From IMG/VR virus record IMGVR_UViG_3300011971_000137, positions 1 through 29,894 of that record: a stretch of DNA of 29,894 nt, one strand, 5' to 3'. Origin of the DNA: a virus (taxonomy: Duplodnaviria > Caudoviricetes). How positions within the stretch are numbered: the first letter of the stretch is position 1; every line of letters begins with the position of its first letter. The notes beneath the pieces were generated by a model, which saw nothing but the letters and a program-made list of their open reading frames with translations, was not told the origin of the DNA and searched no databases. Shown one piece after another: positions 8,452 to 29,894 of this stretch. Position numbers and translations under genes: made by a program.

Positions 8452-10037
8452 TGTCCTTACTGGAAGAATTAATCAATTACTCCGACGATGTGATAGCGGG
8501 TAAGGTTGTTGCATGCGTTAAAAATAAGTGGGCTTGCCAAAGATTTCTAAACGATATAGCCAGACAGGGAACCGAAGAGTTTCCTTTTGTTTTTGTCGAG
8601 GAAAAATCAGAACGGTTCAACGATTGGATGAGGATGTTTAAGCACCGTAAAGGTGTACTCAAGGGCCAATACATTGAACCGCACATAATCCAAAAGTTTG
8701 TCTTTGGAAATATATATGGCTGGGTCCACAGAGATACAGGGTACCGAAGATTCAACAAAGCCTACTGGCAAGTTGGCCGTAAGAATGCCAAGTCTCAAAG
8801 CCTGTCTTGTGTCGGAAGCTATGAGTTAATGGCATTTGGCGAAGGGGCTTCCGAGGTTTACTGTACAGCAACAAAGCGAAAACAGGCTCGAATAGTTTGG
8901 GAAGAGACAGAAGCTATGCTCTTGGGGTGCCACGAGCTAAAGGGTAAGTTCAAAATTGCATACGGTCAGATAAAGCACGTAAAAACAGGGTCCATAATGG
9001 ATGCACTAAGCAAAGAGGATGAAAAGACTGGTGATGGACTTAATCCTCAATGCGGAATTATTGACGAGTACCATGCTCATAAAACGTCTGAAATGTATGA
9101 CATCATTGATAGTGGTATGGTCGCGAGACCACAGCCGTTACTGATGATCATTACTACTGCTGGATTTGACCTGTCTAATCCATGCTATTCCGTAGAGTAT
9201 AAGCTCGTCTCACATATCCTTGACCCTGATAACCCTTACTTGAATGAAAATTATTTCGTCATGATCAACGAATTAGACAAAGATGATGACATAAAAGATG
9301 AATCAGTTTGGGAAAAAGCTAACCCAATTGTTTGCTCTTATCCAGAGGGTGTTGATTCCATCCGTAAAAGGCTGAACTTAGCGCTTGAAGCACCCGAAAA
9401 GATGCGTGATTTTCTCACAAAAACAGTAAACGTCTGGGTTCAAATGCGGGAATTCGGATATATGGATCTCTCAAAGTGGGCCAAATGTGGACAAGAAATT
9501 GATCTGGAGATACTTAGGGACCAAGAATGTATCATTGGTAACGATTTATCTTCTACGTTGGACTTAACCAGTGTGGCCCATGAGTTCAAGATAGAGGAAA
9601 AATACTTTACTTTGTGTCATTCTTTCATGCCTGAAGAACGACTCAATGAAAAGATGGCAACAGACAAAGTTCCTTATGATCTTTGGGTTAAACAAGGATG
9701 GATCACATTAACACCAGGTGAAGTCGTGGACTATGCCTTTGTAATTGAGTACATCAACTCTACCAATGAAAAATACGGATTCATCCCCAAAGAACTTTGT
9801 TATGACAAATGGAATGCGACAATGTTCGGTACTGAAATGACTAATCAAGGTTATACGTGCGTGGACATTCGGCAGGGGATGCAGACGTTAGGGGAACCGA
9901 CCAAGAGTTTCAGGGAAGAAGTGTATAAGGGAAATGTGATACACAATAATAACCCTGTCTTAACATGGGCGATTGGAAATGCAGTCACAAAGATGGCTCC
10001 TAATGAAACAAGAACATCGGAGAGACAAGCGGATTAA
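8451..10037 (+). CDS. terL: Terminase large subunit, C-terminally truncated
   Basis: Walker A VGRKNAKS, Walker B GIIDEYH, ITTAG, GNDLSSTLDLT, YDKWNA, NPVLTWAIGN. Similarity stops at MAPNE; the usual final K...RID motif is absent. Confidence 0.92.
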   Translation: MSLLEELINYSDDVIAGKVVACVKNKWACQRFLNDIARQGTEEFPFVFVEEKSERFNDWMRMFKHRKGVLKGQYIEPHIIQKFVFGNIYGWVHRDTGYRRFNKAYWQVGRKNAKSQSLSCVGSYELMAFGEGASEVYCTATKRKQARIVWEETEAMLLGCHELKGKFKIAYGQIKHVKTGSIMDALSKEDEKTGDGLNPQCGIIDEYHAHKTSEMYDIIDSGMVARPQPLLMIITTAGFDLSNPCYSVEYKLVSHILDPDNPYLNENYFVMINELDKDDDIKDESVWEKANPIVCSYPEGVDSIRKRLNLALEAPEKMRDFLTKTVNVWVQMREFGYMDLSKWAKCGQEIDLEILRDQECIIGNDLSSTLDLTSVAHEFKIEEKYFTLCHSFMPEERLNEKMATDKVPYDLWVKQGWITLTPGEVVDYAFVIEYINSTNEKYGFIPKELCYDKWNATMFGTEMTNQGYTCVDIRQGMQTLGEPTKSFREEVYKGNVIHNNNPVLTWAIGNAVTKMAPNETRTSERQAD

Positions 10038-10120
10038 CGGATCCAGCACAATGGCTAATTGATCTCTTTGGCGGGGGGGTAACAACCTCAAGCGGCGAAC
10101 AGATCACGGCAGTAAACTCC

Positions 10121-11248
10121 TTGGAGATTGCAACGGTCTATGCATGCGTCAATATCAAGTCAAATGCAATCGCAAAGCTACCAATGCAAGTCTTTAAGAC
10201 CACACCAACCGGCAGGGAACGAGACAAAGCACATCAAGTAGCAAAACTTCTTGAAGTGCGGCCAAATCAATTCACAACTCCGTTCACCTTCAAGCATACG
10301 TTATCAGTCCATCAAAACCTTTGGGGAATAGCCTATGTTTACATGGAACCAGACCCTAGAAACGGAAAAATTATTGCATTATGGCTATTACATCCAGACG
10401 TTACGCAGCCATATCGAGACATCGAAACAGGACTCTACACCTATATTACAACACTGAATAGCAAGACAATGCGCCTGCAAGAGTCGGAAATTATTAAGCT
10501 TCCTTATCTCTCCCTTGATGGTGTGCGCGGCAAGAGTCCTATTGCTGTAGCTCGCGAGACGCTTGAGGTAATGAGAGCCAGCAATAAGTTTATCGGTGGA
10601 TTCTACAAGAACGGAACAAGCACTAAGGGAATCATCACAACTCCGGCACAACTTGGATCCCCAGCGAAAGATGCCCTCAGGTACGAATGGCAGAAAGCAA
10701 ATGGTGGGGTTGATAACGCTGGCGGTGTTGCGGTTGTTGATGCCGGTATGACCTATCAAAGTATTTCAATGCCCTTGGCTGATGCTGAGTTCATTGCAAC
10801 AGGTAAGTTCAATGTGGCTGAGATAGCCAAGATATTCAACGTCCCGCTTCACAAGCTTGCCGAACTTGATCGAGCGACATTCTCCAATATTGAAAGCCAG
10901 AACATGGACTTCGTTGGGGATTGCATCGCACCTTCTTTGATTAGTTGGGAAGAGGAATTTTCCTACAAGCTATTCTGTACGGAGAAGGATGCTGGGCATT
11001 ACGTTAAGTTCAACCTTAACAGCGCATTAAGGGGCGATTCAGCAAGCAGGGCGACCTACTACCAGACCATGACAGGTATTGGGGCGTACAGTATCAACGA
11101 CGTTCTTGAGCTAGAAGAAAAGGAAAGCATCGGGCCTGAGGGTGACGCGCATCGCGTTGACCTTAACCATGTAAATGTCTCTCTTGTCGATGAGTATCAA
11201 ATGAATAAATCGAAGATACCGAGTAAAACAGAGCCTCCTAAACAATAG
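10121..11248 (+). CDS. HK97-family portal protein, natural 5' end missing
   Basis: TVYACVNIKSNAIAKLP...GKSPI...EIAKIFNVP...ATFSNIE...LRGD. The frame is open back to 10007 with portal-like residues but no start codon or RBS. Confidence 0.92.
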   Translation: MEIATVYACVNIKSNAIAKLPMQVFKTTPTGRERDKAHQVAKLLEVRPNQFTTPFTFKHTLSVHQNLWGIAYVYMEPDPRNGKIIALWLLHPDVTQPYRDIETGLYTYITTLNSKTMRLQESEIIKLPYLSLDGVRGKSPIAVARETLEVMRASNKFIGGFYKNGTSTKGIITTPAQLGSPAKDALRYEWQKANGGVDNAGGVAVVDAGMTYQSISMPLADAEFIATGKFNVAEIAKIFNVPLHKLAELDRATFSNIESQNMDFVGDCIAPSLISWEEEFSYKLFCTEKDAGHYVKFNLNSALRGDSASRATYYQTMTGIGAYSINDVLELEEKESIGPEGDAHRVDLNHVNVSLVDEYQMNKSKIPSKTEPPKQ

Positions 11249-14960: not shown

Positions 14961-16025
14961 ATGGGGCTTCCCAACATAGAGGTAATTTTTAAATCCTTAG
15001 CCATAAGTGCAATTAAAAGAGGAGCAAGAGGAGTCGTTGCCGTCGTTCTAAAAGATGCGTTGCATAATGGGGCTAACGTCTATACGGATTCAGCAATGAT
15101 CCCACAGGACTATTCGGCGTATAATCTTAACCAAATTAACCTGGCCTACATGGGTGGAGTGCAACCTCCCACTAGCTTAATCGTATATGTCGAGCCGGTT
15201 GATGCCGCCAATTACACGGCTGCTATGACCTACCTAGAAACAGTTAAGTGGGATTATGGGTGCGTACCTGAAATTGGTTTGTCAGATGCCTTGTTGTTTG
15301 CGACGTGGATCAAGGGTCTAAGAGATACGAAGGATATTAAGTCTAAAATGGTCTTGCCTAATACAGCAAGTGATCACGAGGGAGTCATAAACTTCGCCAC
15401 AGACGGAATTATTACAGCAGGGGGAACGGTAGCAGCCACAGATTACTGCAGTAGGATAGCGGGCATCTTGGCTGGAAATCCATTAACCATGAGTGCTACC
15501 TATCAAGTGCTATCGGAGGTTTTGGACGTTCCTCATTCAACAAAAGCACAATTCAATACACTTATTGATGCCGGTAAACTTGTCCTTATGAATGACGGCG
15601 AAAAGGTTAAGATCGCACGGGCGGTAAATAGCCTGGTTACTATCATTCCGGACAAGAGTGCTGACTTCAAGAAGATCAAAATTGTCGACATTATGGATTT
15701 AGTCAACAACGACATAAAAAAGACTTATGACGATAATTACGTTGGCAAGGTTCCGAACGATTATGACCATAAGTGCTTACTTATCACGGCTATTAATGCC
15801 TACCTTGAAGGGTTAGAGAAATCAAATGCTTTTAGACAAAGGAAAGAACAGTGTTAAGTAGACGTAGAGGCCCAAGGATTGTACCTCAGAGGAATCGGGA
15901 TAGATACCAGCCTAATGACTAGCGCGGAGATTAAGCAAGCAAACACCGGGTCATCCGTTCTATTGACGGGCACAACAAAGCCTTTGGATGCAATGGAAGA
16001 TTTGATTCTGAATTTATTTTTATAG
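14961..16025 (+). pseudogene. Contractile tail sheath (XkdK/C. difficile phage type), interrupted by TAA at 15855-15857
   Basis: MGLPNIEVIFK...DHEGVINF...SRIAGILAG...KVKIARAVNSL...YVGKVPNDYDHK. Sheath-like sequence resumes in the same frame after the stop (VDVEAQ...ANTGSSV...LDAMEDL) to TAG at 16023-16025. Confidence 0.88.
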
Positions 16026-23836: not shown

Positions 23837-24199
23837 TTGCCTAACTATACGACCAATCTAAACCTAAAAAAGCCACTGGCCACTGAGAATTTCAACATTG
23901 ATGACTTTAACAGCAATGCTGACTTAATCGATGCTGCCGTGGCCGCTAAAGAAACCCCTGCCGGAGCTCAGGCTAAGGTGGATGCGGCAATAACTGCTTT
24001 ATTAAACGGAGCCCCTGGAGCCTTAAACACATTAAAGGAATTAGCTGATGCACTAGGCGATGACGCAAGCTTTGCTGCATCCGTCACAACTGCCTTGGCG
24101 AGCAAGGCCGATCAGACAACCGTTGCTGCGCATTTGGCGGATGAAGCTCAGTACCGATTAAATATCGGAAGAATATTAAGCATGGGAGGAATGGCGTAA
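23837..24199 (+). CDS. Tail fibre proximal protein
   Basis: TTNLNLKKP...DFNSNADLID and GAPGALNTLKELADALGDDASFA fibre motifs; GGAGG favours TTG 23837. Confidence 0.75.
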   Translation: MPNYTTNLNLKKPLATENFNIDDFNSNADLIDAAVAAKETPAGAQAKVDAAITALLNGAPGALNTLKELADALGDDASFAASVTTALASKADQTTVAAHLADEAQYRLNIGRILSMGGMA

Positions 24200-25423: not shown

Positions 25424-25555
25424 ATGGCTGATATGTACTTTAAGTTAGTAAAAGAGGGTAGACGACAAATGGAGTCAGGAGGTCCACTCGCCCAAGTACC
25501 TGAAAAATACAGGGCAGAAGTGCAGGTTATACTGGATGCTCAAGTCGTTGTTTAG
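25424..25555 (+). CDS. Small CD1375/XkdX-like phage protein (43 aa), copy 1; not in the ORF track
   Basis: MADMYFKLVKEGRRQMESGGPLAQVPEKYRAEVQVILDAQVVV; AAGGGG RBS. Confidence 0.75.
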   Translation: MADMYFKLVKEGRRQMESGGPLAQVPEKYRAEVQVILDAQVVV

Positions 25556-25589
25556 GTTTCTCATCTCTCTGATGAGGGGAGGTGATATC

Positions 25590-25748
25590 GTGGTAGATAT
25601 GTATTTGGCTTTGGTTATGAATCATAGACGACAAATTCCAGCAGGTGGCCCATTAGCAATGGTCCCTGCAATGTACTCAGTCGCAGTAATGGCAGACCTA
25701 ACGGCGCTTGGACTCGACGGATATGGTAATCTAATCGTAGTAGAGTAA
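25590..25748 (+). CDS. Small CD1375/XkdX-like phage protein (52 aa), copy 2
   Basis: GTG 25590 after GGAGGTGA: MVDMYLALVMNHRRQIPAGGPLAMVPAMYSVAVMADLTALGLDGYGN. Confidence 0.7.
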   Translation: MVDMYLALVMNHRRQIPAGGPLAMVPAMYSVAVMADLTALGLDGYGNLIVVE

Positions 25749-25756
25749 TTACAACA

Positions 25757-25799
25757 AAGGGCAAAGCAGACACCACAGAGTGTTTTTTTCTTTGCCCTT
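25757..25799 (+). terminator. Terminator at the end of the late operon
   Basis: Outer inverted repeat AAGGGCAAAG/CTTTGCCCTT with an inner GACAC...GTGTT stem and T7 run. Confidence 0.6.
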
Positions 25800-25801
25800 C
25801 T

Positions 25802-25829
25802 ACTACATAGTAGACGCATTATGTGCTCA
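25802..25829 (+). repeat. dif/Xer-like recombination site 1
   Basis: ACTACATAGTA-GACGCA-TTATGTGCTCA. Confidence 0.7.
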
Positions 25830-25863
25830 AAATTAATATTTACTAAAAACGCATGATGAGAAC

Positions 25864-25891
25864 AAAAAGGACACCATTTATTGGCGTCCTT
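25864..25891 (-). terminator. Terminator for the minus-strand cargo gene
   Basis: AAGGACACCA/TGGCGTCCTT stem preceded by an A run (T run on the minus strand), 20 bp past the stop. Confidence 0.6.
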
Positions 25892-25910
25892 AGATATTAC
25901 TTGCTAAGAG

Positions 25911-26822
25911 TTATCGGGATATGTTAATTAATTTTTCTTCAGATGCTAACCTTAGATACCAATTTCGAATGGAGGAAACATACCATTGAGAAAAATCTAT
26001 CTCCATTTGAGGAGCAAAATATTGAATAGCCGAACGATAGGTAGTAATAGCCATGCTCAGCGCTAAACTGGAATAGGCCTGAAGATTTCGCTGATCTCGT
26101 AAACCTAGAATCATCGCGCGTTGTCCCTGGCGAACTATGTTATTAAACGTATCTGTTGCGTGTACGCCGGTTGACCATTTGCGGTATAAGCTGTCATACC
26201 AGTCTCTATAACCAAGTTCACCTGCTAGGGCTTGGATGGATTGAGGACCTTCGAACAATGAAAACCAATTTGGATTTCTCTTTTGGAAGTTTCTTACTCT
26301 ATACCATTCGTTTATGATTTTAACAACTTCTTTGTTTTTGATTTTTCTTTGAATTTGCTGCGAATTGGAAAGTATGCCGCCCTTAAGCTTTTCCAACCTT
26401 GTTTTGTGGCTATGGAATTTACTGTTCTGTAGAATACTTTTCTCAATTTTTCTATACGTGGAAAGTCGTTGAATTTGGTTGCTAATTTGATAAGCGAGTG
26501 CCCTTCTCTTTGTATCCTCTTTTAGAATATAATTTATACCTAAAATGGCTTCAAATAGACTTCTTAGAAGTGGTTCCGAGGAATTTATACATCCTTGCCG
26601 ATATAAAACTGAGATTGAGTCTAGGATTTCTAAAACATGTCGTATTAGCATAATGGGGGTAAGCTCGTAATTATTCTGGTTAGTAATCTTCTCTGTGCAC
26701 CAAGTTAAACAGTGTGTCCCATAATTAACACATTCATCTAATACATTGGCATTAATATCTAATAGTTGTTGATGCTCTTTTGTTCCAGGTTTTCTTCTAA
26801 GATAATTTTCATGTGGTTCCAT
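25911..26822 (-). CDS. DUF5677-like / HEPN-related cargo protein
   Basis: LLRSLFE...YIL and LAGELG...YDSLYRKWSTGVH (Rx6H); AT-rich, opposite strand to phage genes, AGAGGGA RBS. Confidence 0.7.
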   Translation of the reverse strand: MEPHENYLRRKPGTKEHQQLLDINANVLDECVNYGTHCLTWCTEKITNQNNYELTPIMLIRHVLEILDSISVLYRQGCINSSEPLLRSLFEAILGINYILKEDTKRRALAYQISNQIQRLSTYRKIEKSILQNSKFHSHKTRLEKLKGGILSNSQQIQRKIKNKEVVKIINEWYRVRNFQKRNPNWFSLFEGPQSIQALAGELGYRDWYDSLYRKWSTGVHATDTFNNIVRQGQRAMILGLRDQRNLQAYSSLALSMAITTYRSAIQYFAPQMEIDFSQWYVSSIRNWYLRLASEEKLINISR

Positions 26823-27064
26823 TTTGATAAGTCCCTCTCTTTCTAAGGTGGTCGAAAACGTTCCGTGTATTTGTTACGAGCCCCAACAACATTTCGTTAG
26901 TCAACGTAGGCCGTCTTACAAATATCTTAATATCCACGAAATTGATCTCAACAGAGTTCATTTACTATTTCAACATATTAACAAGTATTCCTTCATTTAA
27001 GCACATACGGATCCGAACAATAGGATTCCTTATGCAATTGGAAGAGGGGATTAAATGCAAATTT

Positions 27065-27092
27065 ACTTCGCTTAAGACGCATTATGTCCAGC
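27065..27092 (+). repeat. dif/Xer-like recombination site 2
   Basis: ACTTCGCTTAA-GACGCA-TTATGTCCAGC. Confidence 0.75.
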
Positions 27093-27259
27093 AAACGCCC
27101 TGAGACAAGAGCGTTTCTTTTATGCCAGCACCTATCATCTTCTCAGAAATCAGGTCCAAAGTCCTATCAAGGTGTGCCGTATGGACATTATGGGAAAAGA
27201 TAGAGAGTATTATACTGAGTTTAAGACCTACAAAAATGAAAGAAGGCGATATAGTGGTA

Positions 27260-28402
27260 ATGCTTAAAATTAGCAAAATAAATACATTTCTTATCGGTAT
27301 AATGATGATGGCTATTTTATTGTGCTTTAGCAGCCAAGTCCTAGCGGCTGTTCCGGTCACTGGTATCACTGTGACAAGTGCAGGAAATGTAACTACGGTA
27401 GTTAATGCTGGAACCCTGCAAATGAGTGTAGCTATTCTGCCAGTAAATGCAGACGATCAGACTGTAAGTTGGTCAGTAGCACCAGGAACTGGAACAGCAA
27501 CAATCAATGCAACTGGTTTACTAACAGGAACGGGATTAGGAACTGTAACCGTAACAGCAATAGCTAATGACGGTTCAGCCATTACAGGGACGAAAACAAT
27601 CGCAGTTATAGACAATACCCTGCAAAGTATAGCCATAACTGCCCCAGCCACCAAATTAAGCTATAGCATCGGTGATACACTAGATATAACAGGACTTGTA
27701 GTAACCGGAACTTATAGCGATAGTAGCACTAAGGCTGAGAGCATAACCGCTGCAAATATAACGGGTTTTGATAGTACAGCGCCAGCCGCAAGCCAAACGT
27801 TGACGATCACTATTGGAGGCAAAACCACAACCTATAATGTAGAGATCAAAGCAGCCCCAGTCGTCGTGCTTAACAGCATAGCAATCACAACACCGGCGAC
27901 GACACTAATCTACAACGTAGGAGACACGCTTGACCTAACAGGTTTAGTCGTCACAGGAACGTATAGTGACATCAGCACCAAAGAGGAAACAGTAACTGCC
28001 ACGAATATAACCGGTTTCAACAGCGCAGTAGTAGCAACTGATCAGGTTCTCACTATTACAATTGGTGCTAAGACAACGACTTACAAAGTGCAGATCGAAG
28101 CCGCACCTACTGAAATAGGAACCGCCTCACCTATAGTTGGGCCAAGTAAAGTATGGACAATTAAACTAAGTGGCCTGGTAAATGAATCTAGCCTTAACGG
28201 TAAGGTTTATGTAACTAACTCTAAAGGAATTAAACAAAAAATCAGTTGCACAGCTACAGTGGTCAACGGATTTTCGCAAATAGAGGTTAAACCAGATAAG
28301 AATTATGTTCCCGGTGACTATATACTATGGGTAAAGAACATTAAGTCCATAAAAGAAGTTGGTATCAAAAAACAAGTATTTATGAAGTTTACAGTAAAGT
28401 AG
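27260..28402 (+). CDS. Secreted/surface protein with bacterial Ig-like domains (Big_2, two Big_3-type repeats, C-terminal Ig-like)
   Basis: Signal peptide MLKISK...LLCFSSQVLA; VPVTGITVT...VTVTAIANDGS; twice SIAIT.PAT.L.Y..GDTLD.TGLVVTGTYSD...ITGF.S...TTTY; KVWTIKL...KFTVK. The ORF-track start at 27122 is probably too early. Confidence 0.85.
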   Translation: MLKISKINTFLIGIMMMAILLCFSSQVLAAVPVTGITVTSAGNVTTVVNAGTLQMSVAILPVNADDQTVSWSVAPGTGTATINATGLLTGTGLGTVTVTAIANDGSAITGTKTIAVIDNTLQSIAITAPATKLSYSIGDTLDITGLVVTGTYSDSSTKAESITAANITGFDSTAPAASQTLTITIGGKTTTYNVEIKAAPVVVLNSIAITTPATTLIYNVGDTLDLTGLVVTGTYSDISTKEETVTATNITGFNSAVVATDQVLTITIGAKTTTYKVQIEAAPTEIGTASPIVGPSKVWTIKLSGLVNESSLNGKVYVTNSKGIKQKISCTATVVNGFSQIEVKPDKNYVPGDYILWVKNIKSIKEVGIKKQVFMKFTVK

Positions 28403-28459
28403 TACGTATGGTTATTGGACTGTAAGCTACGCTTTCATTGACGATGTTTGTGGTAGTAT

Positions 28460-28488
28460 AACGAGATACCGAAGAGGTGTCTCGTTTT
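28460..28488 (+). terminator. Terminator after the Ig-domain gene
   Basis: AACGAGATACC-GAAGA-GGTGTCTCGTT followed by TT. Confidence 0.7.
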
Positions 28489-28503
28489 GTATTCTAAAAG
28501 TAA

Positions 28504-28531
28504 ACTGCGTATTAGACGCATTATGCGCAAC
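28504..28531 (+). repeat. dif/Xer-like recombination site 3
   Basis: ACTGCGTATTA-GACGCA-TTATGCGCAAC. Confidence 0.75.
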
Positions 28532-28766
28532 AATACTCAGTTTAACAAACGCCTCTGAAATACGGGGCGTTTTGTTATGCTCAAAAAGAGACGAAAGGGT
28601 CGGTTGCATTGTCTTTACAACGCGTATACAAGCAAAATGATTATTCTTGCCTATCAACTGATTAAGCCTGTAGTCCTAATAGAGGGAGGATCAAGGTGTC
28701 GCGAGAACGCACGGGATATGAATTCATTTTTAGTGGGACAGTTTGGGCGCCAATTGTGTAACTAAA

Positions 28767-28794
28767 ACTTCGATTACTGGGAGTTTAGCGAACC
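28767..28794 (-). repeat. dif/Xer-like site in opposite orientation with a different core
   Basis: Minus strand GGTTCGCTAAA-CTCCCA-GTAATCGAAGT; left arm matches site 4 at 9/11. Confidence 0.5.
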
Positions 28795-28886
28795 CAATAA
28801 CATTCCAAACGGATTAAAAATAAATTTGGTGAATAATTCGGGGGGAATTGTAAACAATAATTTTTTACGAAAAGAATAAATAGGGA

Positions 28887-29492
28887 ATGGAGAATGTGGA
28901 TTGCATGGGAGAGGAACAATTAGGAGCATTTAATCACCTTGTTGAAATGCAAAAAGAACTAACAACGTTGGAGATGAAATATTGGAATCAATATTCATCG
29001 TATAATGATTGGCATTTCTGGTTTATGGTTGTATTATTGATCTTACCGTTAATTGTATTATACTTATTTATTGACAGAAGAAGGATGTTCCATCTAGGTT
29101 TCTTTGGATTTAGCATTCACATTTTGCAATCATATGTGGATTCTGCGGCAGTATATCTTGGTAAGTGGACGTATTTATACAAATTAATCCCCATCTATCC
29201 AATTAGTTTTGCATTAGATGCCTCCTGTATCCCAGTAACTTTTATGCTCATTTACCAGTGGACATTAAACCATAAGAAAAATTTTTACTTATATGCGACG
29301 ATGCCTGCCATTTTCTTTGCCTTTATTGCAAAGCCCTTTTTGGTTGGCATTAATATTACTAAGCTAGGACCAAGTGGAGGAGGGTTTGCCTATCTTATCC
29401 TATTCATTAGTCATTTATTTATAGCCTATGCATCAAAATGGATAACCGATTTATTCAGAAAACTCCTCGTGAAAGAGACTCAAATTCAATAG
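28887..29492 (+). CDS. CBO0543-like multi-pass membrane protein
   Basis: YW..Y....W.FW...IDRRR...D......G.W.Y...LIP...D....PV.FMLIYQ; about five hydrophobic segments. Confidence 0.75.
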   Translation: MENVDCMGEEQLGAFNHLVEMQKELTTLEMKYWNQYSSYNDWHFWFMVVLLILPLIVLYLFIDRRRMFHLGFFGFSIHILQSYVDSAAVYLGKWTYLYKLIPIYPISFALDASCIPVTFMLIYQWTLNHKKNFYLYATMPAIFFAFIAKPFLVGINITKLGPSGGGFAYLILFISHLFIAYASKWITDLFRKLLVKETQIQ

Positions 29493-29517
29493 AAATGCTA
29501 AAATGATAAAGACACTG

Positions 29518-29548
29518 AAGACTGCCATGTTCTTGGTAGTCTTATTTT
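29518..29548 (+). terminator. Terminator after the membrane-protein gene
   Basis: AAGACTGCCA-N6-TGGTAGTCTT followed by ATTTT. Confidence 0.6.
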
Positions 29549-29618
29549 ACATATCAGCCATTATCGGATCCAATGTCAAATAATTTCCTCCTTTTAAGAT
29601 CAAAAGTATTGGAACTTA

Positions 29619-29646
29619 ACTTCGCTAAAGACGCATTATGCGCAGT
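29619..29646 (+). repeat. dif/Xer-like recombination site 4
   Basis: ACTTCGCTAAA-GACGCA-TTATGCGCAGT. Confidence 0.75.
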
Positions 29647-29717
29647 AATGCGCATGAATAAGCGCAACCAACTCAAACCCAACTTTTGGGTATATAATCA
29701 CCTTATTGGGGGTGGTT

Positions 29718-29894
29718 ATGCTGGTAAGGAAAGCCGTGAATATCACCTTGGAGCCAGACGTATATGATGAGCTTTGTAATTATGCGGGCAAGAAGGGAAT
29801 TCGAGTTTCTCCATGGGTTAGTGCAAAAATGAAAGAGTTCATCGAAGAGGAAAAAGAAGCTGAAGCCGAAAAAACTAAAAGAGCGAAAAGATAA
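29718..29894 (+). CDS. Ribbon-helix-helix (CopG-like) DNA-binding protein
   Basis: RKAVNITLEPDVYDELCNYAGKKGIRVSPWV: alternating beta strand then two helices; GGGGGTGG RBS and TATAAT at 29693-29698. Confidence 0.7.
   Translation: MLVRKAVNITLEPDVYDELCNYAGKKGIRVSPWVSAKMKEFIEEEKEAEAEKTKRAKR

Follow-up and report, generated by a model that had tools for sequence, protein, structure and literature searches.

Single-gene blocks swapped at 28-bp Xer-type sites behind the tail genes of a temperate phage, with a phage-encoded tyrosine recombinase as the probable driver

The virus record IMGVR_UViG_3300011971_000137, whose entire 29,894 nt were analysed here and are referred to as the window, represents a temperate phage with head and contractile-tail genes, and behind the tail genes it carries a row of four 28-bp sites with unrelated accessory genes between them. 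Comparison with related loci makes it almost certain that whole single-gene blocks are swapped at these sites, and the likeliest driver of this exchange appears to be a single phage-encoded Xer-type tyrosine recombinase, a reading that the comparative evidence leads us to hold with a probability of roughly 65%. The blocks begin and end at the sites, the arms of the sites are related by dyad symmetry, and an intact recombinase of one clade is found in the same row in many relatives. An earlier sequence-only reading of the window had proposed a modular cargo platform, and this notion has held up, as the sites are the borders of swappable single-gene blocks and the cargo changes there in relatives.

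The pattern ACTN7AGACGCATTATG, with at most two mismatches allowed, has exactly four matches in the window, where 0.03 were expected and none of 100 shuffles reached four. All four lie on the plus strand as direct repeats with an 11-6-11 layout and the spacer GACGCA, in agreement with the positions, orientation and sequences first reported for them, and the right arm mirrors the left, 4-8 of 11 arm positions matching between the arms. Site 1 (25802-25829) reads ACTACATAGTA GACGCA TTATGTGCTCA and site 3 occupies 28504-28531. Sites 2 (27065-27092) and 4 (29619-29646) are hybrids: in site 2 the left flank, left arm and GAC are those of the right end of a host-wide module family and the remainder is of the phage type, and in site 4 a module right end, whose identity to G036:C188 stops after GAC at 29632, is followed by a phage-type right arm. 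The original count of four was nevertheless incomplete, since a fifth site and a related one had been missed, both on the plus strand. The fifth (28767-28794; ACTTCGATTAC TGGGAG TTTAGCGAACC) is a module left end with an inner arm that is the mirror image of the left arm in site 4, and the related 11-6-11 site (24125-24152), a matrix match with the spacer GGCGGA, lies in a tail-fibre-region gene, where it is read in frame as AHLAD. The distinct spacer classes met were GACGCA, TGGGAG, GGCGGA and GATACA, and Rfam gave no match. A possible decayed copy is located 35 nt behind site 1 (25837-25864), 18 of its 28 bases being equal to those of site 4 when compared by eye.

The Ig-domain cassette between sites 2 and 3 (27076-28529) moves as a unit, as it is found at about 96.5% identity in two other contexts, with other flanks at both ends. 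In locus L012 the left flank of site 1 of the window is joined to the right flank of site 2 with one site between them, the DUF5677 cargo is missing, and the Ig cassette, 96.8% identical over 27076-28529, is followed by a second site and then by holin and amidase genes. A 2453-nt contig from an independent study (X3/X4) matches 27075-28528 with 51 differences and has foreign flanks on both sides. In X2, which comes from the same study as the possible source of the window, 28513 is joined to 29629 and the 1115 nt skipped equal the spacing from site 3 to site 4, the CBO0543 cassette being omitted. Since the last cassette of X2 is a diverged copy, differing from that of the window at 41 positions in 266 nt, X2 represents another allele and not an excision product. 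In X5, from a third study, the Ig cassette is left at 28529 and a variant of the last cassette comes next, while homology to the last cassette in genomes G023 and G027 begins at 29629, the spacer edge of site 4.

The same tendency is seen in the counts. Among 28 array segments, compared in pairs that are not independent, 57 of 364 internal BLAST ends fell in a site in both partners, site windows making up 1.9% of the sequence. Furthermore, 67 distinct site contexts, drawn from 47 loci picked by eye, showed at least two different partners in six of seven multi-member left-flank families and in nine of ten right-flank families, although the latter figure may be inflated by look-alike terminators. 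Most single pattern matches in wider scans, which lay within open reading frames (ORFs) or in taxa that are unrelated, were put down to chance. In genome G023 (C254:4854-6900, locus L098) a leucine-rich-repeat/Ig gene lies between two direct sites, with a conserved TPR gene preceding it; in G001 and G026, where the neighbouring genes are the same, this place gave no site match.

A few observations fit less well with clean exchange within the spacer or with excision. An 88%-identical Ig gene in G023:C273 has a downstream site only, and first capture of a gene may hence use another route. In the outer right arm of site 2, five of seven bases differ from L012 despite the 96.8% identity of the cassette, and the arm resembles that of L309; as it does not track the cassette, one exchange seems to have occurred just past the arm and not in the spacer. 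Excision of the cassettes as circles had likewise been proposed, yet none were found in run contigs, though contigs drop rare forms. An apparent circle junction in X4 (28530 back to 27094) was rejected, because 97 foreign nt precede just 23 nt of site sequence on its left side, making the join another upstream context.

The window has no recombinase gene beside the array, as had been stated at the outset, the only one found being a truncated integrase at 1-402. The relatives do, however, supply a candidate. In L126/L128, L129, L132 and L183 a tyrosine recombinase of 314-335 aa is encoded 0.6-1.3 kb behind a site and transcribed towards it, and in L196, L202, L203, L204/L205 and L224 a site lies 62-67 bp from the end of the recombinase gene. 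Matrix matches occurred at 18 of 44 viral recombinase loci, 25 in all, every one of them 3' of the gene and on the opposite strand with at most three per locus, as opposed to none in 885 kb of 68 baseplate loci used as control. The usual arrangement runs from fibre and small tail genes through a site, the Arc-like cassette, a second site, cargo and a third site to a terminator, the recombinase, small genes and holin. In addition, homology between recombinase segments begins at a site, so that the recombinase gene, too, counts as a cassette that can be lost.

The enzyme is intact, with the R, K, HxxR, H and Y motifs all kept, but in the helix compared it is without the RQG motif present in the XerD-like host proteins L323 and L324. 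Its alignment to XerD is unbroken, and that to IntI4 falls into two stretches. Among profiles, NF040815 matches it best (214-226 bits against a cut-off of 220), and it scores below the cut-offs for XerC, XerD and IntI, TIGR02249 (IntI) giving 113-120 bits in two stretches against a cut-off of 265. The site-bearing recombinase loci form one clade (Shimodaira-Hasegawa approximate likelihood ratio test, SH-aLRT, 96) in a quick tree that left out duplicate proteins and loci without an ORF above 250 aa. As many as 767 protein clusters match the recombinase at E<=1e-80, and the GAC-type site was found at none of 16 recombinase loci of at most 63% identity, some of which carry GGACGA or GGCTGA sites. 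Distant homologues in L207-L210 (57-60% identity) have sites with a GGACGA spacer about 340-550 nt upstream of the gene, and in L200, unlike in other loci, the stretch that runs from the recombinase through the lysis genes faces the other way with respect to the tail genes, possibly by inversion.

Sites 2 and 4 connect the array to a second family of modules that is host-wide. Their left flanks match host repeats through the left arm and GAC, and the matched repeats are the right ends of modules with the layout TGGGAG TTTAGCGAA ... gene ... TTCGCTAAA GACCCA. Five genomes gave 53 module-end matches versus 15 in the control, with 11 outward-facing pairs 0.6-3.9 kb apart; a scan of 91 genomes met the module left end 41 times, in 23 of them (once in the control), and it is also present at 105 viral loci, where a right-end-like match, weak in some cases, lies downstream of 21 of 74 distinct left ends. 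A complete module (28767-29632) that encloses the third cargo gene is fused to site 4 after GAC, and a second complete nested module is found in prophage L309. The inner arms are inverted in the nested module of the window and in the 11 chromosomal pairs, while the four array sites are direct. The fusion after GAC implies one crossover inside the spacer and points to a need for 3 bp of homology, which is likewise needed for first strand exchange in the integrative mobile elements exploiting Xer (IMEX), according to the portion of PMC5357621 available to us.

Chromosomal locus L408 (G011:C6:857494-865850) contains a tandem row of module ends, three left and two right, which surround a regulator/peptidase-like gene pair and other genes. 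A three-gene operon that we take to be germination-receptor-like adjoins a module left end in L409 and recurs in the phage-remnant array L101 (left end G043:C6:241391), and the cargo of the nested module in L309 (5059-6141) gave a weak PADLOC match to PD-T4-6 (E 3.7e-7).

The mechanism that we favour is that one recombinase would bind both mirror-image arms, acting as a homotetramer, and that first strand exchange would require only the first three spacer bases, GAC, which would enable phage sites (GACGCA) to pair with module ends (GACCCA). The transfer of a block may then take a pair of crossovers between phage or prophage genomes that share a cell, or else proceed through rare circles, and the recombinase of this particular prophage would be supplied from past the window end or in trans. 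Several observations nonetheless speak against the phage enzyme as the driver. Five of the 44 recombinase loci were first reached via the site pattern, and without them the matches fall to 13 of 39, with some loci being duplicates; furthermore, taxon is a confounder, since host group was not matched in the choice of the baseplate controls. Of 69 family genomes, 16 have sites as against five with the recombinase (E<=1e-60), though these five include G023, the genome with most sites, and in the prophage tail clusters L113-L117 a site is present and no recombinase was found within the 14 kb read. No close homologue of the phage recombinase was found near chromosomal modules or in G031, G035, G036 and G037, which have many modules of the second family, and this family may consequently use another enzyme.

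The strongest competing explanation, which we consider unlikely, is that host XerC and XerD recombine the sites as they do plasmid pdif sites, which would leave the phage recombinase as a passenger cassette or accessory factor. The sequence-only reading had likewise seen the sites as dif/Xer-type and had named a host or trans-acting recombinase as the actor. Indeed, the 11-6-11 layout and the inner right arm TTATG are both as in dif, the host genomes checked have XerC/XerD-like genes, and sites and modules are found in genomes where the phage recombinase was not. The dif sequences quoted for Bacillus subtilis and Escherichia coli agree with the part of the PMC3025954 supplement at hand, and the left arm of site 1 does match that of B. 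subtilis dif at 8 of 11 positions. The divergent XerD arms of TLC attP and difGGI are moreover recombined by host Xer all the same, as far as the accessible text of PMC5357621 goes. However, a family dif pattern, built on predicted Desulfitobacterium dif sites from those rows of the PMC3025954 supplement that were available and scanned over 69 family genomes, matched in 58 of them, once in 51, with mostly TAGATA as spacer and TAAA as outer right arm, and the window sites, with GACGCA and mirror-image arms, have no TAAA outer arm. They agree with one such dif (L138) at just 2 of 6 spacer positions and at 4-5 of 11 positions in the left arm, the host being placed at the family level, and a matrix of the pooled arms gives the dif left arm about 0 bits. 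The notion that the sites are copies of host dif was therefore rejected, spacer, left arm and outer right arm all being different. Mirror-image arms and a dedicated intact recombinase placed so close to a site in several phages also tell against host XerC/XerD, and the likelier enzyme is a phage-encoded one, located in the same array in relatives.

It is improbable that the sites are conserved linkers at gene borders and that relaxed homologous or micro-homology recombination swaps the blocks, aided by a shared hairpin. Such an explanation draws on the similar AACGCC..GGCGTT hairpin that opens many right flanks and on the site-2 junction that seemingly lies just past the arm, and relaxed homologous recombination has reportedly been described for temperate phages (PMC3945230). 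The shared identity is however just 12-16 bp, the partners at hybrid sites have little in common beyond the palindromic arm and GAC, and neither dyad arms with a fixed 6-bp spacer nor distinct spacer classes are expected of linkers. Least probable is that the motif serves as an operator or promoter, such as one for the Arc-like protein encoded after site 4, with cargo borders coinciding secondarily: tandem TTATGCGCA repeats upstream of the Arc-like gene, similar repeats before site-less homologues (L262, L263) and weak reverse-strand promoter matches overlapping sites 2 and 3 would fit this, but promoter matches are fewer than in shuffles (10 versus 13.1), the sites follow terminators or overlap stop codons, and breakpoints at the spacer are left unexplained. 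A genome-wide transcription-factor box, which had been named as a refuting case, was not seen either, since 2 of 42 genus genomes have the exact core and the relaxed pattern (32 matches versus 4 in the control) is present in 16 of 69 family genomes, as befits a patchy mobile motif and not a regulon box. An operator role may still be an added function of the right arm. The tandem TGCGCA-like repeats ahead of the Arc-like gene (29637-29668) partly coincide with the right arm of site 4, and a repressor bound there could gate recombination at this site.

The array works like the pdif (pXerC/D) modules of Acinetobacter plasmids, but it does not have their host-dif-like XerC/XerD arms. In both, cargo borders coincide with the sites and the same module occurs in several contexts; accessory genes bounded by 28-bp Xer-type sites, hybrid sites and movement via cointegrates, a plausible shared route, are described for pdif in the parts of PMC9455709 and PMC9947245 available. 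According to the same parts, pdif sites resemble chromosomal dif and use host XerC/XerD, and a title cited in PMC9947245 refers to modules with inversely oriented flanking sites, whereas the present sites are unlike host dif and have mirror-image arms, a fixed place in the phage and a phage-encoded recombinase. The four array sites share one orientation, though the nested module and the chromosomal pairs have inverted inner arms.

The label integron-like, which the array had also been given, is apt for the layout only. In relatives, though not in the window, a tyrosine recombinase gene adjoins cassettes of one gene each that are lined up with their sites all pointing the same way. An integron is however defined by IntI, attI and attC, and the enzyme found here scores well short of the IntI cut-off, its alignment to IntI4 being in two parts, while the cassettes have their own terminators and either direction. 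Regarding attC, no GTTRRRY of the core pair RYYYAAC..GTTRRRY occurs within 150 nt of any site on the plus strand, and bottom-strand folding (z -0.76, -0.44, -4.57 and -1.45) revealed no structure in common. Site 3 alone folds well (z -4.6), because an inverted copy of its left arm (28532-28545) directly follows its right arm. Identity as an integron was rejected, as neither IntI nor attC features were found.

The Rin shufflon of Bifidobacterium prophages likewise has a phage-encoded, XerD-like and armless tyrosine recombinase beside tail genes, which is separate from the prophage integrase and acts on short repeated sites (PMC6109161, of which a part was available). That system, according to the same part, inverts receptor-binding tips at asymmetric 11-bp rix sites, whereas the present sites are 28-bp dyads in direct order at which unrelated whole genes are gained, lost and exchanged between genomes; inverted sites with alternative gene ends are not seen, and only L200 has a reversed segment. 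The single-recombinase systems XerS/difSL, XerH/difH and XerA have one enzyme with a site adjoining its gene, and an intact Xer-type enzyme with a site beside its gene is indeed found in relatives of the window. The available part of PMC5357621, however, describes these systems as resolving chromosome dimers at one site, while in the present hosts dif is separate and single-copy and the array sites are multiple and mobile. In the IMEX (CTXphi, VGJphi, TLCphi, GGI), too, the site is dif-like, with an XerD arm that diverges or a spacer that is homologous in part, but they integrate at host dif (PMC5357621, same part); here the sites are internal to the prophage and share the 11-6-11 dyad layout, with a spacer and XerC arm that do not match host dif. 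A literature search found no description of such a system, most subscription papers being outside its reach.

The window is likely a soil prophage of a Desulfosporosinus-type sulfate reducer. Of eight genome matches examined, only Desulfosporosinus fructosivorans had a locus (12 kb) matching window DNA, and the genus Desulfosporosinus was the source of the best matches to array DNA, so that the host can be inferred at the genus or family level. The tail module ends with a CD1375-family gene (25424-25555; above the NF040910 cut-off) and a similar small gene behind it, together spanning 25424-25748 on the plus strand, and is followed by a plus-strand terminator-like inverted repeat (25757-25799) that forms the left flank of site 1 and is common to L012 and L196, where other cargo comes next. 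In the relatives L113-L117, L125, L127 and L133 one site is found directly after the last tail gene and before the lysis genes, often overlapping the stop codon of the former. The array does not mark the prophage end, as had been believed: relatives continue to holin and amidase genes, and the record stops in the middle of the array, the source contig running 1037 nt beyond 29894. No holin or endolysin match was found among the window genes. The integrase at 1-402 breaks off at 133 aa, the portal gene starts within the end of the terminase gene in a different frame (9950-10121) and the sheath gene runs on in another frame (15840-16025), which reflects either a decaying prophage or assembly errors.

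As for the cargo, the labels DUF5677, Ig-domain and CBO0543 were corroborated by PF18928, Big_2/Big_3 and NF041644, respectively. Cargo 1 (25911-26822, minus strand) encodes a DUF5677 protein of 303 aa in an interval with a GC content of 0.36. Cargo 2 (27236-28402, plus strand, the start being extended to 27122 by the ORF finder) encodes a likely exported protein with one Big_2 and two Big_3 domains. Cargo 3 (28887-29492, plus strand) encodes a CBO0543-family protein (36.4 bits versus a cut-off of 35) that is likely membrane-bound. Each of these three has a terminator-like stem of its own (25867-25891 on the minus strand, 28460-28486 and 29518-29543 on the plus strand), as had been described. 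Cargo 4 (29718-29894, plus strand) encodes a small Arc/ribbon-helix-helix-like protein, its identity being a lead taken from a cluster match at 0.92. None of the four proteins was matched by PADLOC, and single-protein patterns found no viral relatives of the DUF5677 or CBO0543 cargo. Upstream of the array, short homology of the window to the fibre genes of L125 and L127 stops at 24146-24147, within the GGCGGA site, which is a possible fibre-tip exchange point. The same class is present in the fibre regions of L189, L190, L195, L196, L198, L203, L220 and L224, and its occurrence in several recombinase-bearing phages suggests fibre-tip exchange by the same enzyme family.

The gain of single accessory genes by temperate phages at fixed places is usually ascribed to illegitimate or relaxed homologous recombination, and this question becomes testable because the borders are defined sites with a candidate enzyme. 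It could well be that temperate phages of the Desulfitobacteriaceae carry an integron analogue of their own, in which an Xer-like recombinase, itself a cassette, runs a platform between tail and lysis genes, and in which cargo (GACGCA), host-wide modules (TGGGAG and GACCCA) and fibre genes (GGCGGA) have spacer classes that act as separate exchange slots, with accessory genes and possibly fibre tips being traded among phages and with the chromosome. If true, this would broaden Xer-type module exchange to include phages of Bacillota beside Acinetobacter plasmids and link phage cargo to a host-wide module family. It would furthermore offer a possible source of a compact recombinase with natural non-cross-reacting sites, and it would represent integron-like gene capture built from different parts.

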